From: Clostridiales bacterium
GTDB taxonomy: Bacteria > Bacillota > Dehalobacteriia > UBA7702
DNA length: 64,000 nt
Reading direction: 5' to 3'
NCBI GenBank assembly: GCA_036644995.1
Contig: JAVXOZ010000002.1
Span: 50,128-114,127, forward strand
Shown here one piece after another: positions 7,027 to 38,504 of this stretch (positions are counted from its first letter, which is position 1; each line of letters opens with the position of its first letter). A model generated the notes under the pieces. It saw only the letters and a list, made by a program, of their open reading frames with translations. It searched no databases and was not told the origin of the DNA. Made by a program: the position numbers and the translations under genes.

Positions 7027-7866
7027 CTAATCTTCAAAAGTTAAGGGATAAATTTCGTTTTTTTTCATCCCGTATTTATCGGCTATAATTTGAGCGGCTA
7101 TTTTAGCTTTAACACCTTGTTCTGTTAAGGTATTTAGCTCTGTTTTCAATTTTTGGGGTGAGGGGATTTCCAAATTTTCGTTTTTGGGGGGTGGGGCAAT
7201 TACCAAAACCATCTCACCTTTTAATTCTGTATTTTCTGCCATTTCTATCATCGCCCCAAGGGGCATTCGGTAGTAGCTCTCATGGATTTTTGTTAATTCA
7301 CGGCATAAGGTGGCTTCCCTGTTGCCCAAAGCCGCAAAAATATCCGCCAAGTCCTTTGCCAGAGCGTGGGGAGCGATATATAAAATTAAGGTTGTGGGAA
7401 TTTTTTCTAAAATTGTTAAGCGCTCTTTGCGTTCTTTTTTTTGCTTGGGTAAAAACCCTTCAAAGGTAAAATAGCGGCAATCCTGTGCCGAGGCAGTTAA
7501 AGCAGAAAGCACCGCATTGCCACCGGGAATGGGGTGAATAGCCAAATTTTCCATAGCTGCGGCTTTAACTAAATCTTCCCCGGGGTCTGAAATTCCGGGG
7601 GTGCCTGCATCGCTAATTAAGGCGATGGATTTTCCCTCTTTTAGCAAGGTTAAAAATTCTTCACGGCGTTTTGCTGCATTGTGTTGGTGGTAGCTTACCA
7701 TAGGTGTTTTAATATTAAAATGGTGTAATAATATACCGCTGTGGCGAGTATCTTCGGCACCGATGAGGTCTACATTTTTTAATATTTCAATACCTCTTAT
7801 GGTCATATCCCCTAAATTGCCAATGGGGGTTGCCACCAAATACAAGCCGGGGTCTAATTCCGCCAT
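7027..7866 (-). CDS. rsmI: 16S rRNA (cytidine1402-2'-O)-methyltransferase
   Basis: LYLVATPIGNLGDMTIRGIEIL...IGAEDTRHSG tetrapyrrole-methylase fold typical of RsmI/YabC. Confidence 0.9.
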   Translation of the reverse strand: MAELDPGLYLVATPIGNLGDMTIRGIEILKNVDLIGAEDTRHSGILLHHFNIKTPMVSYHQHNAAKRREEFLTLLKEGKSIALISDAGTPGISDPGEDLVKAAAMENLAIHPIPGGNAVLSALTASAQDCRYFTFEGFLPKQKKERKERLTILEKIPTTLILYIAPHALAKDLADIFAALGNREATLCRELTKIHESYYRMPLGAMIEMAENTELKGEMVLVIAPPPKNENLEIPSPQKLKTELNTLTEQGVKAKIAAQIIADKYGMKKNEIYPLTFED

Positions 7867-12555: not shown

Positions 12556-13003
12556 AATAGATGATGTGGAACAGATTTATCAGCTTATTATGGATTATGC
12601 CAATGAAGGGCTGATGTTGGCAAGACCACGGCAAGGGATTTATGCAGGTATCCGTGAATATATTGTAGGGGAAAATTCCACAGGTGAGGTGGTTGCCATT
12701 GGTGCTTTGCGGATTTTGTGGAGCGATTTGGCGGAAATTTGCTCCTTAGCTGTGCGTGAGCCTTATTTGAAAAAAGGGATTGGCAAAAAAATAGTTGAAT
12801 TACTGGAAAATGAAGCCGAGGATTTACGGATTCCCCAAATTTTTGCTTTAACCTATCAACAAGGGTTCTTCTTGAAATGCGGCTTTAATTCCGTGGAACA
12901 CAGTGCCTTGCCCCAAAAAGTTTGGCGTGATTGCATAGATTGCCCTAAGTTTCCTGATTGTGATGAGAAGGCGGTATTAAAAAATACTTCCCATAATGGG
13001 TGA
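12536..13003 (+). CDS. argA: GNAT N-acetyltransferase, short-form N-acetylglutamate synthase (S-NAGS/ArgA-like)
   Basis: 155 aa. The block VVAIGALRILWSDLAEICSLAV...GIGKKIVELL...IFALTYQQGFF is colinear with my recollection of mycobacterial short ArgA (GALHVLWSDLGEI...GIG..IV..LL). Lies immediately upstream of argH. Confidence 0.6.
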   Translation: MIYRKAKIDDVEQIYQLIMDYANEGLMLARPRQGIYAGIREYIVGENSTGEVVAIGALRILWSDLAEICSLAVREPYLKKGIGKKIVELLENEAEDLRIPQIFALTYQQGFFLKCGFNSVEHSALPQKVWRDCIDCPKFPDCDEKAVLKNTSHNG

Positions 13004-13268
13004 TAGCAGGGAAACTCCCCAAACTGAGACCGCTTATGTATTATATATACACTGCACGTCCTCATTTTGGTGTGTTCCCCTGTTCTAACCCATTCTTGAA
13101 AGTATTTTTGTTGCCCATAGGAGATAGCAGGGAAACTTTTTTGAAAGTATTTGTAGTGCCCAAAGCATATAATAAGGAAACTTTTTTAGCAAGGTTAACT
13201 TGTTTTAAAAATTTCCATATAAAATTTAAGATGATTTATTGGACAAGTTGTAATAACGGAGGTTTGTG

Positions 13269-17007: not shown

Positions 17008-17057
17008 CAAATTTTCCATAATGGCGGATATGGAGAAAACTTAAAAAATTTACGGGT

Positions 17058-17181
17058 AGGCTGTTGATAAAGTCTGATATTCGGTAAAATCCCTTCCCAT
17101 CCACTGCCTATGCACATATAGGTACACTGCACAGTGGCTGTTCAGGGAGTTTTACCGAATCTAAGGCTTTCTTAACAGCCT
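17058..17181 (+). repeat. Interspersed ~124 bp imperfect-palindromic repeat, copy A
   Basis: AGGCTGTTGATAAAGTCTGATATTCGGTAAAATCCC...GGGAGTTTTACCGAATCTAAGGCTTTCTTAACAGCCT; terminal inverted repeats with a palindromic core. Followed by GACAATCTG. Bracketed by the 17 bp direct repeat TTAAAAAATTTACGGGT (17041-57 and 17194-210). Confidence 0.9.
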
Positions 17182-17310
17182 GACAATCTGCACTTAAAAA
17201 ATTTACGGGTTTATCTGCATTAAAGCACATTGCATCTCCATATTTTTAGGTTTTAGTGAGTTTAAGCTTTCTTAAATCTTTGGAATTTATGGATTATTGC
17301 TAAATTAAAT

Positions 17311-17490: not shown

Positions 17491-18354
17491 TTACCATTTA
17501 TTAAACCAGTCTACGGTGAGGTCAAAAGCATCTTTACGGGCTTTGGCACAGAGCTCGGGGAATTTGCGTTCGTTTTTTTGGGTTCGTGCCCAAGCTGTTA
17601 CCGGGGTTAAATAGTGGCTTGCTATATCAAAATTAACGTGTTTATATTCATAGGGGAAATTATTGGCTTTTAATCTATCCACAATGTGTTTTGCTCCGTA
17701 TTCTGAAGGCCACATATCATCTGTGGTGGTGGATAAAACCAAAACGTTGCCGTGAATTTTTTCCACGGGAATAATGGCTTCTTCGGGGATGGGGTGGGTA
17801 AAAAGCTCATCATAGCGATAGAGCATTAAAAGTTTACGCCCTTTCCATACACGCTTTATAAAATTCCAGCCTGCACAGCCCTTCATGTGAAAATAGGGCA
17901 ATGGACGGTTTTTATAGCTCCAAGATGAGGTTCTTATAGGGAATTTATACCATGTTACCCCTTCATAAATATAGCAACTGGGTGTAACCCCCACTACGCA
18001 GGTAATATCAGGGAAAAGTGTGGCGGAGGTTAAGGTTAGTTCTGTGCCCTTTGACCAGCCGTACATTCCTATTTTTTTTATTGTGCCATTTTGGTATTTT
18101 TTTAGCCAATTAACGGCATTTTCAATGTATTCTATGGGAATATTGGAAAGTTTATAGCTTAAACCCTTAACGTACCAATAGCCCACTGCCAAAGCAAAAA
18201 AACCATTTTCTGCCAATAATTTTGCTATGGTTTTGGCATTTTCAATACCGCCATCGCTGCCTGTAACAACTATTATGGCTTTATTTGTTTTGGTTTTTGG
18301 GGTAAACAAGGTACCCATAAATCCCTCTTTTTTTAAATCTATATCAAGACTCAT
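17491..18354 (-). CDS. Alpha/beta hydrolase, BAAT/acyl-CoA thioesterase C-terminal-domain family
   Basis: GWSKG nucleophile elbow and dienelactone-hydrolase-like fold. True start is ATG 18354 (MSLDIDL..., RBS GGGAGGT). The track's upstream extension to 18519 reads through repeat copy B. Confidence 0.8.
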   Translation of the reverse strand: MSLDIDLKKEGFMGTLFTPKTKTNKAIIVVTGSDGGIENAKTIAKLLAENGFFALAVGYWYVKGLSYKLSNIPIEYIENAVNWLKKYQNGTIKKIGMYGWSKGTELTLTSATLFPDITCVVGVTPSCYIYEGVTWYKFPIRTSSWSYKNRPLPYFHMKGCAGWNFIKRVWKGRKLLMLYRYDELFTHPIPEEAIIPVEKIHGNVLVLSTTTDDMWPSEYGAKHIVDRLKANNFPYEYKHVNFDIASHYLTPVTAWARTQKNERKFPELCAKARKDAFDLTVDWFNKW

Positions 18355-18459
18355 GAAAACTTTACCTCCCAAAAATAGTAGCTTTAATAAAAAGTCAAAA
18401 ATATTATAACATATTTTGTTTAGTAAGGATAGATAAGACTTTTTAAAATAGAAATCTTT

Positions 18460-18573
18460 AGGCTGTTTATAAAGTCTGATATTCGGTAAAATCCCTTCCC
18501 ACCCACTGCTTATGTACATCTAAGTATACTGCATAGCCGCTGCTCAGGGAGTTTTACCGAATCTAAGGCTTTC
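18460..18573 (+). repeat. Interspersed palindromic repeat, copy B
   Basis: AGGCTGTTTATAAAGTCTGATATTCGGTAAAATCCCTTCCCACCCACTGCTTATGTACATCTAAGTATACTGCATAGCCGCTGCTCAGGGAGTTTTACCGAATCTAAGGCTTTCTTAACAGCCT, with the right-hand extension ATCTTGCCAAAAAACTATGTTTTT. Confidence 0.9.
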
Positions 18574-18668
18574 TTAACAGCCTTACATCTTGCCAAAAAA
18601 CTATGTTTTTCAAAAATCTTTTTAATCACTCATTATTGGCTTGGGTATTTGGTAAAAGCCAAAGGAAT

Positions 18669-18731
18669 ATTCAGTGTTCTATATCTAACATTCAGTGTTC
18701 TATATCTAACATTCAGTGTTCTATATCTCAA
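18669..18731. repeat. Tandem direct repeat, 21 bp x 3 (ATTCAGTGTTCTATATCTAAC)
   Basis: Two exact copies plus one variant copy in the spacer between repeat copy B and the end of arcC. Confidence 0.9.
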
Positions 18732-18825
18732 TATGGGGAATGGTTTTTGTTTGGTAAAAAATATGGAATACAGCCGTGTGTAAATTTTTAAGGAATACAC
18801 TTTGGTATAAAGCATGGTAATGGAA

Positions 18826-18880
18826 AACCGCACCAAATTGATGTTGCCTATGTTTTATAATCATTGGCAATTTGGTGCGG
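18826..18880 (-). terminator. Hairpin downstream of arcC (13 bp stem CCGCACCAAATTG/CAATTTGGTGCGG, 27 nt loop)
   Basis: Perfect 13 bp inverted repeat 25 bp past the arcC stop; short T-run on the minus strand. Confidence 0.4.
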
Positions 18881-18904
18881 CTTGTAATCTATTTTAATTT
18901 AGTG

Positions 18905-19849
18905 CTATTGGATAATGCGAGTGCCGGATTCCCCTAAAATTGCTGCGGGAGCTTTTTCTAAAGAGGCAATTACCGCCACTCTGTTCTTGCCGCTTTTGGC
19001 AAAATCTATGGCGGCTTCTACCTTGGGTAGCATACTGCCAGGGGCAAAATGACCTTGGGCTATGTATGCTTCAGCCTCGGCTACGGTTATTTCTTTTAGC
19101 TCTTTTTCATCGGGTTTGCCAAAATTTATGGATACTCTGTCCACCGCTGTTAGTATAAAAAAGTATTCCGCATCCACCAAGGCTCCAAGCTTTGCTCCGG
19201 CAAAGTCTTTATCTATAACTGCGGCTACGCCTTGGTAGTGGTCTATGCTTTCTTTAATCACCGGTATGCCACCGCCGCCACAGGCTATAACCACAAATTC
19301 GTGGTCTAAAAGATTTAAAATGGAATCTTTTTCCACTATATTTTGGGGCTTGGGTGATGGTACCATGCGGCGATAGCCACGCCCTGCATCTTCCTTAAAT
19401 ACCATATGTGGGTATTTTTTCATTAAATCTTCGGCTTGGCTTTGGGTGTAATAAGCCCCAATGGGCTTTTGGGGGTTTTCAAAGGCAATGTCGTTTTTAT
19501 CCACTTCCACTTGGGTTACCACTGTGGCAACGTGCCAAGGCATATTTTGATTCCGCAGCTCCGCTAACAAGGCTTTTTGCAGGTGATAGCCTATGTAGCC
19601 TTGACTCATGGCGGCGCATTCCGCCAGTTCCATAGGTGGGATTTTTTCGGAATTTTCGCTGCCGTAATCAAAGGCATTTTTAATAACCCCAACTTGAGGG
19701 CCGTTGCCGTGGGTAAGTACTATTTCATAACCTTGGGCAATTAAGCCCACCAATGCCGGAGCGGCTATTTTTAATTTTTCCTGCTGTTCTTTGCCATCGT
19801 TGCCCAAGGCATTGCCACCTAAGGCAATTACAATTCTTGGTTCTTTCAT
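18905..19849 (-). CDS. arcC: Carbamate kinase
   Basis: MKEPRIVIALGGNALG... amino-acid-kinase fold. Start ATG 19849 with RBS TAAGGAGAAA; the track's longer ORF to 19957 extends into repeat copy C. Confidence 0.9.
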   Translation of the reverse strand: MKEPRIVIALGGNALGNDGKEQQEKLKIAAPALVGLIAQGYEIVLTHGNGPQVGVIKNAFDYGSENSEKIPPMELAECAAMSQGYIGYHLQKALLAELRNQNMPWHVATVVTQVEVDKNDIAFENPQKPIGAYYTQSQAEDLMKKYPHMVFKEDAGRGYRRMVPSPKPQNIVEKDSILNLLDHEFVVIACGGGGIPVIKESIDHYQGVAAVIDKDFAGAKLGALVDAEYFFILTAVDRVSINFGKPDEKELKEITVAEAEAYIAQGHFAPGSMLPKVEAAIDFAKSGKNRVAVIASLEKAPAAILGESGTRIIQ

Positions 19850-19916
19850 GTTTCTCCTTAATGGTCTGAAAATTTCCCTTAGAGCAATATCCTTCAGATT
19901 GATGAAAATTGCACTT

Positions 19917-20039
19917 AGGCTGTGGATAAAGTTTGCTATTGGGCAAAATCCCTTCATCGTGACTGCTTATGTACATCTAAGTACATAAGCAGACGCTGCT
20001 CGGGGAGTTTTACCGAATCTAAGGCTTTCTTATCAGCCT
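19917..20039 (+). repeat. Interspersed palindromic repeat, copy C (inside the agmatine deiminase operon)
   Basis: AGGCTGTGGATAAAGTTTGCTATTGGGCAAAATCCC...TGCTTATGTACATCTAAGTACATAAGCAG...GGGGAGTTTTACCGAATCTAAGGCTTTCTTATCAGCCT. Extension ...TTTTTGACAATCTG runs to 20075. Bracketed by the 20 bp direct repeat AGATTGATGAAAATTGCACT (19896-915 and 20076-095). Confidence 0.9.
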
Positions 20040-20133
20040 AATATCTTGGCAAAAAACTATGTTTTTGACAATCTGAGATTGATGAAAATTGCACTAACGG
20101 CTTTTAAATCTGTTGATAGTAATTGGTGTTATT

Positions 20134-21225
20134 TTATGGTCTGGGAATTTGCTGGGTAATGCAGTGGATATTGCCGCCGCCCAAGAGAATTTCTCTGGCA
20201 TATATCCCCACAATTTCACGGTTGGGGAAGCATTTTTTTAAGGTTTCTGCGGCTTTTTCGTCGTTGGGGTCTTTAAATTTGGGATAAATAACAGCATTGT
20301 TGCAAATGTAAAAATTTACATAAGATGCCGCTAAGCGATCTCCTTCAACTCTGGGGAGTGTGCCGTTTACTGCATCTACACCTTGACTTTCTTCTTCGGT
20401 GATGAGGATGGGTTTGGGTAGGAGCATTTTGTGCACGTTTAATTTTCTGCCTTTGGCATCGGTGGAATTTTCCAAAACCTTTAAGCAGTTGGCGGAAATT
20501 TCATATTGAGGGTCGTTTTTATCCTCTGTCCAAGCTAAAATAACTTCACCCGGAGCGGCATAGGAAAAAATATTGTCCACATGGCCATTGGTTTCATCAT
20601 TGTAGATGCCGTTTTTAAGCCAGATGATTTTTTCCAGTCCCAAGTATTCTTTAAGTGTGTTTTCAATTTCTTCTTTGGACATATGGGGATTTCTGCCTTG
20701 ACTTAAAAGGCATTCCTCCGTGGTAATTAAGGTGCCTTCACCGTCTGTGTGGATGCTGCCGCCTTCTAAAATAAATTCATCTAAAGGGTAGTAATTTAGC
20801 CGCTCCGCTTCGCAAACTTTTTGTGCCAAGGCATCATCTTTATCCCAAGGAAAATATAGTCCGTCCACTAAGCCGCCCCAAGCATTAAAACGCCAATCTA
20901 CACCACGGGTTTCTTTGCCGTTTACCACACAGGTAGGGCCGCAATCACGTACCCAAGCATCGTCATTGGCAATTTCTAAAACTCTGACGTTATAGGGGAG
21001 CATTCCACGGGCATTGGCATATTGATCGGAATTTACCGCCACTGTAACTTCTTCAAATTTGCTGATTGCCGTTGCTACCTCTGTGAATACTTTTTGGGCG
21101 GGTTTGCCACCTAAACGCCAGTTATCTGTGCGTTGGGGCCAGATGATATAAGTGCTTTGGTGGGGTTCAAATTCCCCGGGCATACGAAAACCGTCTGCTT
21201 TGGGGCTTGTTTCAAATGCTCTCAT
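20134..21225 (-). CDS. aguA: Agmatine deiminase
   Basis: 363 aa; porphyromonas-type peptidylarginine deiminase fold; WVRDCGP and a C-terminal [13 protein letters not shown] catalytic Cys motif. Confidence 0.9.
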
Positions 21226-22599
21226 TTATTTATCTCCTTTTTCAAGTTTTTTTACGCTTTGGGCGGCTATTATTTCACCGATGACAACAGCCAAAACCGT
21301 GCCTGCTAAAATCGGAATTTTTAAGCCCAGCTCCTCGGGGTCTAAGCTTAAGGGCACTGCACTTAAAACCGTGGCAATGATGAGTAAACCAAAGGGTACC
21401 CATGTCATTAAGGATAGCTTTACTTTGCCGCCGCTGATTTTAAAGGGTCTGTGGATATCCGGCTCGGTTTTGCGGAGCTTTAAAAATGCCGGGAAAATTA
21501 AAATATAGGAAATTAAAAGGGTAATCATATTTAAGGAAAAGAAGCTCCAAAATAAATCTTCACTGGGGATTAACGGCGCAGCTAAAACCATAACACTGGC
21601 TATTACCCCATTCATGATATTGGCACCCAAAGGCATTTTGTTCTTTTTATTTTCCGAGGCAAAAACCTTGGGCATACTTTTATCTTGGGCGGCATATTGT
21701 GCCACATAGTTTACACCCAAAGACCAAGAAATTGGGTTGGCAATAATGGTGTAAAGAAATACCAAACCAAAAAGCAGCAGTAAAATTCCTGAGGTTTGCC
21801 CTGTTAGCATCATAAAGCTTTCAATTAAGCCGTTGGATGTGGTTAAATTCTCCACAGGGATGGCTACGCTGATGCCAAATGCTGTTAATATATAAAAACC
21901 TGCAATGAGGCAACCGCCAATTATTATGGCTTTTGGTATGTCCTTGGCAGGGTTTTTCATATCACCTGCAAAGGTAGTTACCACCTCAAAGCCCATGAAA
22001 TTAAAGAGGATAACGGCGATGAATGAAAGGCTCATAATATCAAAGGATGGTAACATGGATTGTACGGTAAATTCATTGGCTACACCTTTGGTTAATGCCA
22101 CGTAGATACCTAATCCACCCAAAAGCAGCATAATACCTGCTTTGAAAAAAGCGGCGATGTTTAAAATCCATTTACTTTCGGAAACCGGGTAAAAGCTTAC
22201 ACCTACCACCAGCCAAATATATAGTAGCTGTATGGCTAAAATCCAAAATATGGGGATATCCCAACCGGTAATTTGCAGTAAAATATCGGTGAAGAGCACT
22301 GCCAAAGAACCCATCCACAGGGGAAAGTTAATATAATAATACCAAGCTACTCTGGAGCCCCATTTGTGACCAAAGGCTCTTTTTACCCAATCGTAAATTC
22401 CCCCTTCATCTTCATAGGTGGTGCCCAATTCTGCGGATATTAAGCCATAAGGCAGAAAAAAGCCGATGAGGAGCACCAGCCACCAGAAAAATTGAGCGTT
22501 GCCTATTACCGCAGCAGGAGCCGCACTCTCCACCACCAAAACAATGCAAACTGCGGCTAATACTGCATCAAATAGGCGAAATTCTTTCTTTTTGGACAT
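21226..22599 (-). CDS. aguD: APC-family amino acid permease, putative agmatine:putrescine antiporter
   Basis: 457 aa, 12-13 TM APC fold; sits between ptcA and aguA. Confidence 0.75.
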   Translation of the reverse strand: MSKKKEFRLFDAVLAAVCIVLVVESAAPAAVIGNAQFFWWLVLLIGFFLPYGLISAELGTTYEDEGGIYDWVKRAFGHKWGSRVAWYYYINFPLWMGSLAVLFTDILLQITGWDIPIFWILAIQLLYIWLVVGVSFYPVSESKWILNIAAFFKAGIMLLLGGLGIYVALTKGVANEFTVQSMLPSFDIMSLSFIAVILFNFMGFEVVTTFAGDMKNPAKDIPKAIIIGGCLIAGFYILTAFGISVAIPVENLTTSNGLIESFMMLTGQTSGILLLLFGLVFLYTIIANPISWSLGVNYVAQYAAQDKSMPKVFASENKKNKMPLGANIMNGVIASVMVLAAPLIPSEDLFWSFFSLNMITLLISYILIFPAFLKLRKTEPDIHRPFKISGGKVKLSLMTWVPFGLLIIATVLSAVPLSLDPEELGLKIPILAGTVLAVVIGEIIAAQSVKKLEKGDK

Positions 22600-22611: not shown

Positions 22612-23622
22612 TTAGAATATTTCTGCCAATAAGGCGTCAATTTTATGTTTTGCGGTGTGAATGGCATATTCCGCAGGGTTGGCAACGCCCAAAAGATATA
22701 CAAGAATTGCCCGCATTGCGGTTAAGCGGTTTTCTGCTTGGTCAAAGGCAATGGAATGGGCACCATCCAAGGCTTCATCTGTAATTTCTTCCCCACGGGA
22801 GGCAGGCAGGCAGTGGAGCAATTTTACTGTGGGTTTGGCTTTTTTCAGCATATCCTCGGTAACTTGGAATTTTGGCATGAAGATGTTTAAGCGTTCTTCC
22901 TTGGATAATTCCGCATTGTAAAGCCCATACCAAACATCGGTGTATATGAAATCTGCACCTTCCAGTGCGGTATCTGCATTATCCGAAAGGGTAAAAGACC
23001 CACCGGAAATTTTGCAGTTTTCTTTGGCAATTTCTTGAAATTCATTATTTAATTGGTGGGTATTAGGGCCAAACTGGGTGAAGTGCATACCCATTTTAGT
23101 GGTAATCATTGCGGTGGAAGCACAAACCTGGGTGGCATCACCCACAAATACTATTTTTAAATCGTTAAACCGTGCATTGGCAGGTTTGTGCTCAAAAATT
23201 GTGGTGATATCCCCAATTTCTTGGGTGGGATGGTTGTAATCGGACATGGCATTTATCACAGGGATGGTGGCGTGTTGTGCTAAACCTGCCACTGTTTTAT
23301 GCTGATCTACCCTTGCCATGATGATATCCACCAACCGAGAGAGGACACGGGCGGTATCCTCCATGGTTTCGTGGCCCCCTAATTGGATTTGCCCCGGTGC
23401 CAGATATTGGGCATGGCCCCCTAATTGAGTCATTGCTGTTTCAAAGGAAACCCTGGTGCGTGTGGAGCTTTGCTCAAAAACCATGCCCAAAGTTTTGTTT
23501 GCCAAAAGTGGCGGATAGTAACCATCTTTTATGGATTTTTTTAAACCTACACCTAAATGAATCATTTTTAAAATGTCCTGCTTGGTGTAATCTTTTGTGG
23601 TGACTAAATCTTTTTGTTTCAT
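22612..23622 (-). CDS. ptcA: Putrescine carbamoyltransferase (ornithine carbamoyltransferase family)
   Basis: STRTRVSFE carbamoyl-phosphate motif, HPTQ and HCLPA motifs. Start ATG 23622 (MKQKDL..., RBS GGAGG); the track ORF to 23727 is an upstream extension. Context with aguD-aguA-arcC favours PTC over OTC. Confidence 0.65.
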
Positions 23623-23865
23623 AATAACCTCCAATTTCTTTTGGTTAATATACCCATAGAATTGTGGTTTATGTAAAAGAGAAGTGGGACTTTTTGACAA
23701 AAAATTAAAGCAAGAAAGACTTGCCAAGAAAAGTACTTTATGCTAAACTGTGTTTTGTAATGAGGCATACATGAAGTGTGCTCGATATAGTTTATAAATC
23801 CTTTTGATAGATAAACTTTGGTACCTATCTCGGAAAAGTTAAATATTGTATAAATATGTGAAGTA

Positions 23866-25543: not shown

Positions 25544-25820
25544 ATTAACCAAATATATTACAGTAATTTGTGATACAATGGCATAATTATTAAGTAGACA
25601 TCTGAATTTAATCAATCTATAATAAACTTAAACTATGTTAAATTATTTTGAAAAGACTTTGGGCTTTTGAAAAATATGATAATAGGTAAATTCGCCAATC
25701 CCACCTTGCTTATGCACAATAAAGCACACAGCAAGTTTTAGGGTTGGCGTGTTTCCCTGTTTTAGGCTTAAGCCAAAACGCACCACTTGTATGATTGCAT
25801 TTTGTAGGACGAGGTTATTT

Positions 25821-36432: not shown

Positions 36433-36477
36433 AATGTCTCTTGTGTAAAACAAGAAACACGGTTACAATATATATAT

Positions 36478-36600
36478 AGGCTGTGGATAAAGTTTGATAT
36501 TTGGCAAAATCCCTTCCCACCCACTGCTTATGTACATATAGGTACACTGCACAGTGGCTGTTCAGGAGTTTTACCGAATCTAAGCCTTTCTTAACAGCCT
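36478..36600 (+). repeat. Interspersed palindromic repeat, copy D
   Basis: AGGCTGTGGATAAAGTTTGATATTTGGCAAAATCCC...GGAGTTTTACCGAATCTAAGCCTTTCTTAACAGCCT + GACAATCTGA. Confidence 0.9.
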
Positions 36601-36696
36601 GACAATCTGAATTATATAAGGTTACGCAAATTTTTTAGAAACCTAATAACTGTTTTAATTGCTAACTAAAACCAAATATTTGATATGAGGTGATTT

Positions 36697-37946: not shown

Positions 37947-38074
37947 AGGGGCTTTTTTATGGTTAAATAAAGGGTAAAGCCATATTTTTTAATATTAAGA
38001 AGTGATGCAATAATAGAGTAAGGCATATTTTTTATTTAAGGGTATAATTTGGCAATAATTGGAGAACATAATTT

Positions 38075-38445
38075 AGGCTTTGGATAAAGTCTGATATTCG
38101 GCAAAATCCCTTCATCGTGACCGCTTATGTACATTTAAGTACACTGCACGTCCCCGATTCCGTGAGTTTTGCCGAATCTAAGCCTTTCTTCAAAGCCTAT
38201 GATTAGGATAAAGTCTGATATTCGGCAAAATCCCTTCATCGTGACCGCTTATGTACATTTAAGTACACTGCACGTCCCCGATTCCGAGAGTTTTACCGAA
38301 TCTAAGCCTTTCTTCACAGCCTATGATTAGGATAAAGTCTGATATTCGGCAAAATCCCTTCTCAGCCACTGCTTATGTACATCTATGTACACTGCATAGC
38401 CGCTGCTCAGGGAGTTTTGCCGAATCTAAGCCTTTCTTAACAGTC
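38075..38445 (+). repeat. Three tandem copies (E1 38075-38198, E2 38205-38321, E3 38328-38445) of the interspersed palindromic repeat, immediately upstream of the rpoB promoter
   Basis: Each unit is ~120 bp (AGG(CTTTGG)ATAAAGTCTGATATTCGGCAAAATCCC...GAGTTTT(A/G)CCGAATCTAAGCCTTTCTT(C/A)A(A/C)AGCCT). Units are separated by ATGATT. The last is followed by GACAATCTGA. Confidence 0.9.
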
Positions 38446-38504
38446 TGACAATCTGAGAACATAATTTTGACTGTTTTATTTTTTTAAGTTTTTTAAGATT
38501 AAGG

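Follow-up and report, generated by a model that had tools for sequence, protein, structure and literature searches.

The spacer between aguA and arcC very probably contains an inserted small, non-coding, non-autonomous mobile element, here called copy C, and the 20-bp direct repeat that brackets it can with the same confidence be read as the target-site duplication of that insertion. The spacer is 284 bp long and occupies positions 19850-20133 of the window (the whole 64-kb stretch of DNA analysed), with copy C inside it. Direct reading of the sequence and a pattern search placed the perfect 20-mer AGATTGATGAAAATTGCACT at both borders of copy C (Table 1). With up to three mismatches allowed, these were its only two matches in the 64 kb, and the two-match outcome was obtained in none of 100 dinucleotide-preserving shuffles. 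The 160 bp between the 20-mers (19916-20075) consist of a repeat copy and a tail that ends in TTTTTGACAATCTG. At the centre of the core stands a perfect hairpin, GCTTATGTAC-ATCTAA-GTACATAAGC, and the tail closes with ACAATCTG, which repeats the right-arm terminus ACAGCCTN in degenerate form and constitutes the true right end of the element. The initial annotation had described a perfect 20-bp repeat around a 160-bp element in this spacer, and sequence reading, pattern search and NCBIfam confirmed that description. Its statement that copy C lies antisense to the operon was likewise borne out when the family consensus orientation, taken as the plus strand and opposite to that of the operon, was set against the minus-strand genes.

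Table 1. Copy C, other copies with their flanking repeats, and the neighbouring genes. Positions are those of the window; L numbers denote loci fetched from outside it.
Feature	Position	Strand	Sequence or flanking repeat	Repeat length	Basis
Left (arcC-side) probable target-site duplication of copy C	19896..19915	+	AGATTGATGAAAATTGCACT	20 bp, perfect	sequence read, pattern search
Copy C core, imperfect ~125-nt palindrome	19916..20039	+	TAGGCTGT...ATCAGCCT		repeat finding, alignment, nhmmer profile
Copy C long-form tail	20040..20075	+	AATATCTTGGCAAAAAACTATGTTTTTGACAATCTG		
Right (aguA-side) probable target-site duplication of copy C	20076..20095	+	AGATTGATGAAAATTGCACT	20 bp, perfect	sequence read, pattern search
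Empty allele at site C, as reconstructed (predicted)			...CCTTCAGATTGATGAAAATTGCACTAACGG...		
Copy A, short tail	17039..17210 with flanking repeats; element ~17058-17191	+	ACTTAAAAAATTTACGGGT at 17039-17057 and 17192-17210	19 bp, perfect	
Copy B, tail long but truncated; interval between arcC and the hydrolase gene downstream	18452..18621	+	AAATCTTT at 18452-18459 and 18614-18621	8 bp	
Copy D, short tail	36477..36609	+			
Tandem array E, F, G, head-to-tail, upstream of rpoB (flanks of the array as a whole)	38063..38467 with repeats; array 38074-38455	+	AGAACATAATTT at 38063-38074 and 38456-38467	12 bp	
Diverged relative, same orientation	12992..13103	+			nhmmer, E 3e-9
Diverged relative, same orientation	25662..25757	+			nhmmer, E 7e-6
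Copy in L011			AAAGGTGC[G/C]TTTAGCACCTTTT	22 bp, 1 mismatch	
Copy in L017			AGC[G/A]TAGCAGATTAACTACTAC[C/G]CT	25 bp, 2 mismatches	
Copy in L019			ATCA[C/T]AACAAAGTTGTGATAA	21 bp, 1 mismatch	
First copy in L026			bidirectional terminator CCCTTACT...AGTAAGGGCT between convergent genes	~32 bp, 6 mismatches	
Second copy in L026			A[T/C]CTATATG[C/G]T	11 bp	
Composite in L026			TATTTTG(TAGT)	7-11 bp	
arcC, carbamate kinase, gene downstream of the spacer	18905..19849	-			NCBIfam
aguA, agmatine deiminase, gene upstream of the spacer	20134..21225	-			NCBIfam
Amino-acid/polyamine antiporter	21226-22599	-			NCBIfam
ptcA, putrescine carbamoyltransferase	22612-23727	-			NCBIfam

Copy C belongs to a family of about 20 copies at 16 loci, whose members are non-coding elements of 135-160 bp. 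Each copy is built of a ~125-nt imperfect palindrome, YAGGCTGT...ACAGCCT, followed by a tail, which is either short (GACAATCTG, copies A, D and G) or long, with about 26 extra nt ahead of the same GACAATCTG (B, C and several others). Every complete copy ends on the right in ...CAATCTG (CAAGCTG in two) and starts on the left with N-AGGCTGT. The outermost ends of the element form inverted repeats, YAGGCTGT against CAGATTGT, the reverse complement of ACAATCTG; the YAGGCTGT left end has a further counterpart in the inner right arm, ACAGCCT, and the core as a whole is an inverted repeat. Aligned over 16 copies, the consensus hairpin comprises 38 pairs with 94.4% of cells paired, and 12 of these pairs show compensatory changes, while slid controls were paired at 42% or less and none of 500 shuffles reached the values of the hairpin. 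No reading frame through the element is conserved across copies, and Rfam gave nothing at gathering thresholds over the window and nothing at E <= 1 over 19800-20200.

Seven good copies at five loci of the window (with A at 17057 and B at 18459) and two diverged copies at two more were identified by repeat finding, alignment and an nhmmer profile built from the copies. Outside the window, the species has 11 further copies on other contigs, and a single one was found in Peptococcaceae bacterium UBA7702. Copies E, F and G repeat with a 124-nt period and have no tail or duplication between units. Their array is situated in a long non-coding region and is closely followed downstream by a strong TTGACA-17-TATTAT promoter-like site and rpoB; a similar two-unit array is found at the end of contig L017 (9620-9898). 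The tail of copy C contains a perfect TTGACA hexamer at 20064-20069 that faces outward, as does the right end of other long-tail copies; no matching -10 hexamer follows it at copy C.

Apart from a single Peptococcaceae metagenome-assembled genome (MAG), the family was found only in one uncultured 'Clostridiales bacterium', in its MAGs as well as its read assemblies. The sample comprised MAGs named 'Clostridiales bacterium' and the Logan assemblies of SRR25820361-SRR25820368, which were reached by exact-protein matches. The next AguA relative is only 85% identical and carries diverged copies with the same long-tail architecture. As an exact pattern, the element core was absent from the GTDB species genomes and the JGI metagenomes. 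A relaxed pattern gave one genuine full-length copy, that of Peptococcaceae bacterium UBA7702, in which the arms are changed in a compensatory way; the other matches were short and were judged to be chance. A scan of a viral collection returned chance matches only, and blastn against plasmid and phage collections returned no match. When a spurious ORF running through the tandem array was compared with the protein database, one new locus, L026, was obtained, and it holds five copies. No transposase or autonomous partner was seen among the called genes in about 150 kb of the species (the window and the fetched loci).

Other short repeats occur near the copies. A 45-nt tandem repeat (13096-13187, 2 copies) directly follows the diverged relative at 12992 and re-uses its left-arm motif GATAGCAGGGAAACT. 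Between arcC and copy B, the perfect 21-bp tandem repeat ATTCAGTGTTCTATATCTAAC is present in 2.9 copies (18669-18728), and its unit number varies by strain, with 3 in the window and L002, 2 in L003 and L028, and 1 in L027. A 19-nt minisatellite, approximately AGCAGAATNTAATAAGCTT, lies downstream of rplQ just outside the window (L019 14470-14900). Its unit number differs in three MAGs, with spacers of 727, 512 and 588 bp, and the length polymorphism of the rplQ-ecfA spacer between MAGs is due to this minisatellite and not to an element copy. An identity of the family with integron attC-like sites was dropped, as core-site motifs did not fit and the copies are dispersed among housekeeping genes.

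The flanks were compared at every complete copy. Ten insertions have locus-specific flanking repeats of about 8 to 34 bp, and their sequence is different each time. The initial annotation had spoken of a duplicated target at copy C and of a repeat far longer than a classical target-site duplication. The first reading is supported by the differing long repeats at the other copies and by the empty site of copy A, and the remark on length was correct and applies to the family as a trait. A convincing duplication is missing at two or three copies, namely D, the L026 copy at 13111-13251 and, less clearly, B. The hairpins on the two sides of that L026 copy differ from each other, an arrangement that recombination between copies would be expected to leave. 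Elsewhere in L026 (6353-6402), a 20-21-bp direct repeat, GTGTTTTTT(T)ATCTATATG[G/C]T, with a 12-nt gap (CAGTGGGTGCAG) lies directly left of an element copy, and it could mark a spot at which an insertion had earlier occurred and been excised.

Comparison of strains provided an empty site for copy A. In the divergent strain L027 (GCA_036648935.1), which was reached via an AguA variant of the same 90% cluster, site A has no element and exactly one 19-mer, with flanks that are otherwise identical. The repeats are thus not pre-existing tandem duplications; they were made by insertion, or removed together with the element by recombination between them. The empty state of site A need accordingly not be ancestral; it could have arisen by a precise deletion between the 19-mers. 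GCA_036648935.1 also lacks copy B.

For site C, assemblies of the species were reached through their exact AguA and ArcC proteins and through the AguA variants of the 90% cluster. None of the nine has an empty site there, since each either contains the element or is interrupted within it, so that copy C predates A and B or has become fixed. The element and both 20-mers are present in L002, L003, L006 and L028, and contigs L001, L004, L005, L029 and L030 break inside the element beside a 20-mer (L001 within the 20-mer). The 4-bp aguA-arcC spacer of the 85% relative is uninformative on the pre-insertion sequence at C. In GCA_036648935.1, site C (L027 4093-4389) has a short tail, ten N inside the element, and a tail-side flank, CGAGCAGTAAAAATTGCACT, which replaces the 20-mer and repeats only its distal 11 nt. 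Since the junction is normal in two further assemblies that carry this AguA variant, we treated that of L027 as a later rearrangement or an assembly problem. Beyond copy B, L028 (5605-5860) enters a different neighbourhood, with an AI-2E transporter gene that is elsewhere located after gyrA; either element copies recombined and caused a rearrangement here, or the repeat was misassembled.

An insertion in the middle of an operon raises the alternative that the hairpin is mainly a selected regulatory RNA of the agu operon, acting on processing, stability or attenuation of arcC relative to aguA, with the 20-bp repeat being incidental. Co-transcription of copy C in the agu operon mRNA is plausible from the sequence, because neither promoter-like sites on the operon (minus) strand of the spacer nor terminator-like sites on the minus strand over 18300-20400 were predicted. 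Copy C does not show the GC-rich stem followed by a U-run that an intrinsic terminator would have on the minus strand, and arcC keeps a strong AAGGAG ribosome-binding site of its own, as read from the sequence. The agu mRNA would then carry a long antisense-copy hairpin between aguA and arcC. This RNA is predicted to fold well: the minus-strand spacer RNA has a folding energy of -72 kcal/mol (z = -4.4), and about -47 kcal/mol is calculated for the core hairpin alone. Strand asymmetry of folding, which might have distinguished a role as RNA or single strand from that of a double-stranded inverted repeat, was inconsistent over the family, the minus strand folding more stably in 8 of 11 copies and G-U pairs occurring on both strands. 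Palindromic repeats of other bacteria (REP, ERIC, Correia) affect mRNA stability, and by analogy a role of copy C in agu mRNA processing or stability is possible. Copy C is moreover kept in every strain seen, while A and B are polymorphic. Against a mainly regulatory origin, the same element occurs at many unrelated intergenic sites and in either orientation to genes, it has no Rfam match, and no terminator-like or promoter-like site is predicted on the operon strand. Also, in the closest other species (L007, AguA 85% identical) aguA and arcC are separated by 4 bp (7098-7103) with no such structure. We therefore consider this alternative unlikely as the main explanation. Element and one copy of the duplication account for 180 bp of the 284-bp spacer, and judging from the 4-bp spacing in L007, the 104-bp spacer that preceded the insertion would itself be a lineage-specific gain.

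The reading of copy C as an inserted mobile element leads to the question of how the copies were joined to their targets, on which the ends, targets and orientation of the family bear. Four of the ten duplications are end-to-end hairpins with stems of 7-12 bp (each P <= 0.002 against intergenic segments of the same length), one of them a bidirectional terminator between convergent genes in L026, so that the joints often coincide with the two bases of a target stem. The 20-mer of copy C is not a hairpin, and a model confined to hairpin targets leaves the insertion of copy C unexplained. Duplications start with A in 9 of 10 cases and end with T in 8 or 9 of 10, a twofold-symmetric A...T preference that is expected if the same reaction acts on both strands. 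No microhomology was found at either element end when all flanks were compared. A composite in L026 (9857-10184) is made of two copies enclosing an unrelated hairpin, ATGTTCCCCATTGCTTTACAATGGGGAATCTC, with one short outer repeat, and it looks as though it had moved as one unit, carrying a former target hairpin; its single outer repeat therefore indicates that the outer ends are what is recognised and that an outer left and an outer right end can act together. Finally, the element lies on the strand with positive GC skew (G-rich, leading) at 16 of 16 loci, the Peptococcaceae MAG locus included, with local genes running either way relative to it, and chance would give this outcome about once in 30,000. 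As all copies share the G-rich strand, we infer that integration or retention may be coupled to the direction of replication.

Some of these features could also be produced by template switching, in which a nascent strand would have left the spacer, copied the hairpin element elsewhere and returned upstream, thereby copying the 20 bp a second time. A long duplicated segment of variable length, the over-representation of fork-stalling hairpins and palindromes among the targets, and a strict strand bias with respect to GC skew all fit such a replication-linked process. Yet the left and right termini are identical in every copy whatever the donor context, and the element ends share no microhomology with the sequences where a switch would start or land; the combination of constant ends, variable flanks and absent microhomology argues against template switching. 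Copy-choice would also not be expected to give a symmetric A...T preference or a two-copy composite with an internal hairpin and a single outer duplication. The template-switch signature that the initial annotation had offered as the other reading of the 20-mers is for these reasons unsupported; symmetric enzymatic strand transfer fits the constant termini, the lack of microhomology and the A...T symmetry better than copy-choice, which we regard as quite improbable.

RNA-mediated retro-insertion, a SINE-like target-primed reverse transcription with the tail as the priming end and variable second-strand nicking, is less probable still. It would account for duplications that vary from 8 to 34 bp next to an asymmetric 3' tail, which resemble the footprints of target-primed reverse transcription, and the element does fold stably as RNA. 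No reverse transcriptase is located nearby, however, and there is neither an A-rich or other priming tail nor a series of 5' truncations. Like those of DNA transposons, the termini are related inverted sequences (YAGGCTGT and ACAATCTG in reverse complement), the target preference is the symmetric A...T, and the copies take both orientations to local transcription and one orientation to GC skew. Site-specific recombination, with the 20-mers as attL/attR cores common to element and target, is the least credible of all, since direct repeats of 11-25 bp around an insert are typical of integrases but the flanking repeat here differs in sequence at every locus, which already contradicts this reading, is not part of the element consensus, and is present at empty site A as ordinary local sequence.

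Taken as an insertion by enzymatic strand transfer, copy C would have arisen as follows. An enzyme supplied in trans would recognise both conserved ends of the element and join them to the two target strands at staggered positions, preferably 5' of an A in either strand. Once the single-stranded gaps were repaired, the stretch between the joints would be duplicated, with a variable stagger of about 8 to 34 bp. At a small palindrome or terminator, joints at the two stem bases would lead to duplication of the whole hairpin, and such a target may be engaged as an extruded hairpin or cruciform, in which the two bases would be brought side by side. Taken together, the observations agree with an integration that is transposase-like and specific for the element ends, has a flexible stagger, and possibly involves extruded hairpins and a coupling to replication direction. 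A variable stagger is unlike the product of a conventional compact DDE transpososome. Tentatively, and with less than even confidence, we therefore raise a structure-recognising new mode of integration, in which joints would be made at the bases of hairpins or cruciforms or at a flexible distance, terminators would be duplicated and one replication strand used, by an enzyme outside the known MITE-mobilising transposase families.

By structure, the family conforms to the definition of miniature inverted-repeat elements (MITEs), in that it is small, multi-copy and non-coding, has terminal inverted repeats, and shows flanking duplications and an empty site (copy A). It departs from the usual fixed duplication length, as duplications of 8, 11, 7-11, 12, 19, 20, 21, 22, 25 and ~32 bp were found. 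Like Correia/NEMIS, ERIC/IRU, RUP and bcr1, which are MITEs or foldback repeats, it is about 130-160 bp in size, non-coding and bounded by terminal inverted repeats; it likewise forms a stable long stem-loop with compensatory changes, is intergenic and also found within operons, and shows target duplications and strain polymorphism. The Correia target duplication is TA. Those of bcr1 and IMU are 5 bp (PMC3184786). In contrast to these short fixed duplications of known MITE families, those of the present family span about 8 to 34 bp and often comprise a whole target hairpin, and it further differs from them by its single orientation with respect to GC skew and by an asymmetric tail with a second degenerate terminal motif. 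Literature searches yielded no bacterial MITE for which long variable duplications, or the duplication of whole terminators, had been described.

Documented bacterial precedents for long variable duplications are IS1549/IS1634 and, after these, restriction-modification units, with IS1634/IS1549 being nearest in behaviour. The direct repeats made by IS1549 and IS1634 are long and vary from 8 to 514 bp, and no mechanistic model was given for them (PMC2266710); the direct repeats of the present family are similarly long and variable in length across insertions. Unlike this family, IS1549 and IS1634 are autonomous elements of 1.5-2 kb that encode a DDE transposase, and no such gene was found here. 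No terminus matching theirs was found either, although the published consensus, C-----YT, is too weak for a comparison with YAGGCTGT / CAGATTGT. In the literature examined, no link of IS1634/IS1549 to hairpin targets or to a replication strand is reported.

The family also resembles REPIN/REP (RAYT) and IS200/IS605-type elements, which are extragenic, hairpin-forming non-coding repeats that can occur in tandem arrays. IS200/IS605 transposition proceeds through single-stranded DNA and is biased to one replication strand, and the orientation bias seen here might suggest a strand bias of this kind. REPIN/RAYT and IS200/IS605 insert next to a fixed short motif and do not duplicate their target. 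In the present family, by contrast, duplications are usual, copy A has an empty site, and no fixed tetranucleotide was observed in the flanks. Neither a RAYT nor a TnpA gene was seen among the called genes of the window and the fetched loci.

Cas1-type integration, as in CRISPR spacer acquisition and casposons, offers another likeness, since its staggered joints lie far apart and yield a long duplicated segment, for example a palindromic CRISPR repeat. Casposon duplications measure 14-15 bp, and a cruciform has been proposed for Cas1-type integration. Cas1-type duplications are of fixed length for each system, and those of restriction-modification units exceed 30 bp and surround multi-kb gene cassettes. 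Unlike both systems, the present insertions involve no cas1 or restriction-modification genes, and the insert is a 135-160-bp hairpin with defined ends. Two papers link Cas1 integration to transposition (PMC4940900, PMC5137440), and restriction-modification units have been described to insert with long target duplications of variable length by an unexplained route (PMC2853133).

The presence of this family explains why assemblies of the source organism break at element sites. Insertions have reshaped operon structure, as the aguA-arcC junction is 4 bp in the relative and a 284-bp structured spacer here, and an insertion can double a terminator. The outward TTGACA at the ends of long tails could create hybrid promoters at other sites. 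The length of a target duplication is normally a fixed signature of the transposase, so that duplications of 8-34 bp, hairpin targets and a single facing point to an unusual integration geometry, one already noted in IS1634 and IS1549, and there is a real chance that the integration mechanism is new. The many short and easily compared insertion sites of this family, some of them polymorphic, are a place where that mechanism could be worked out.
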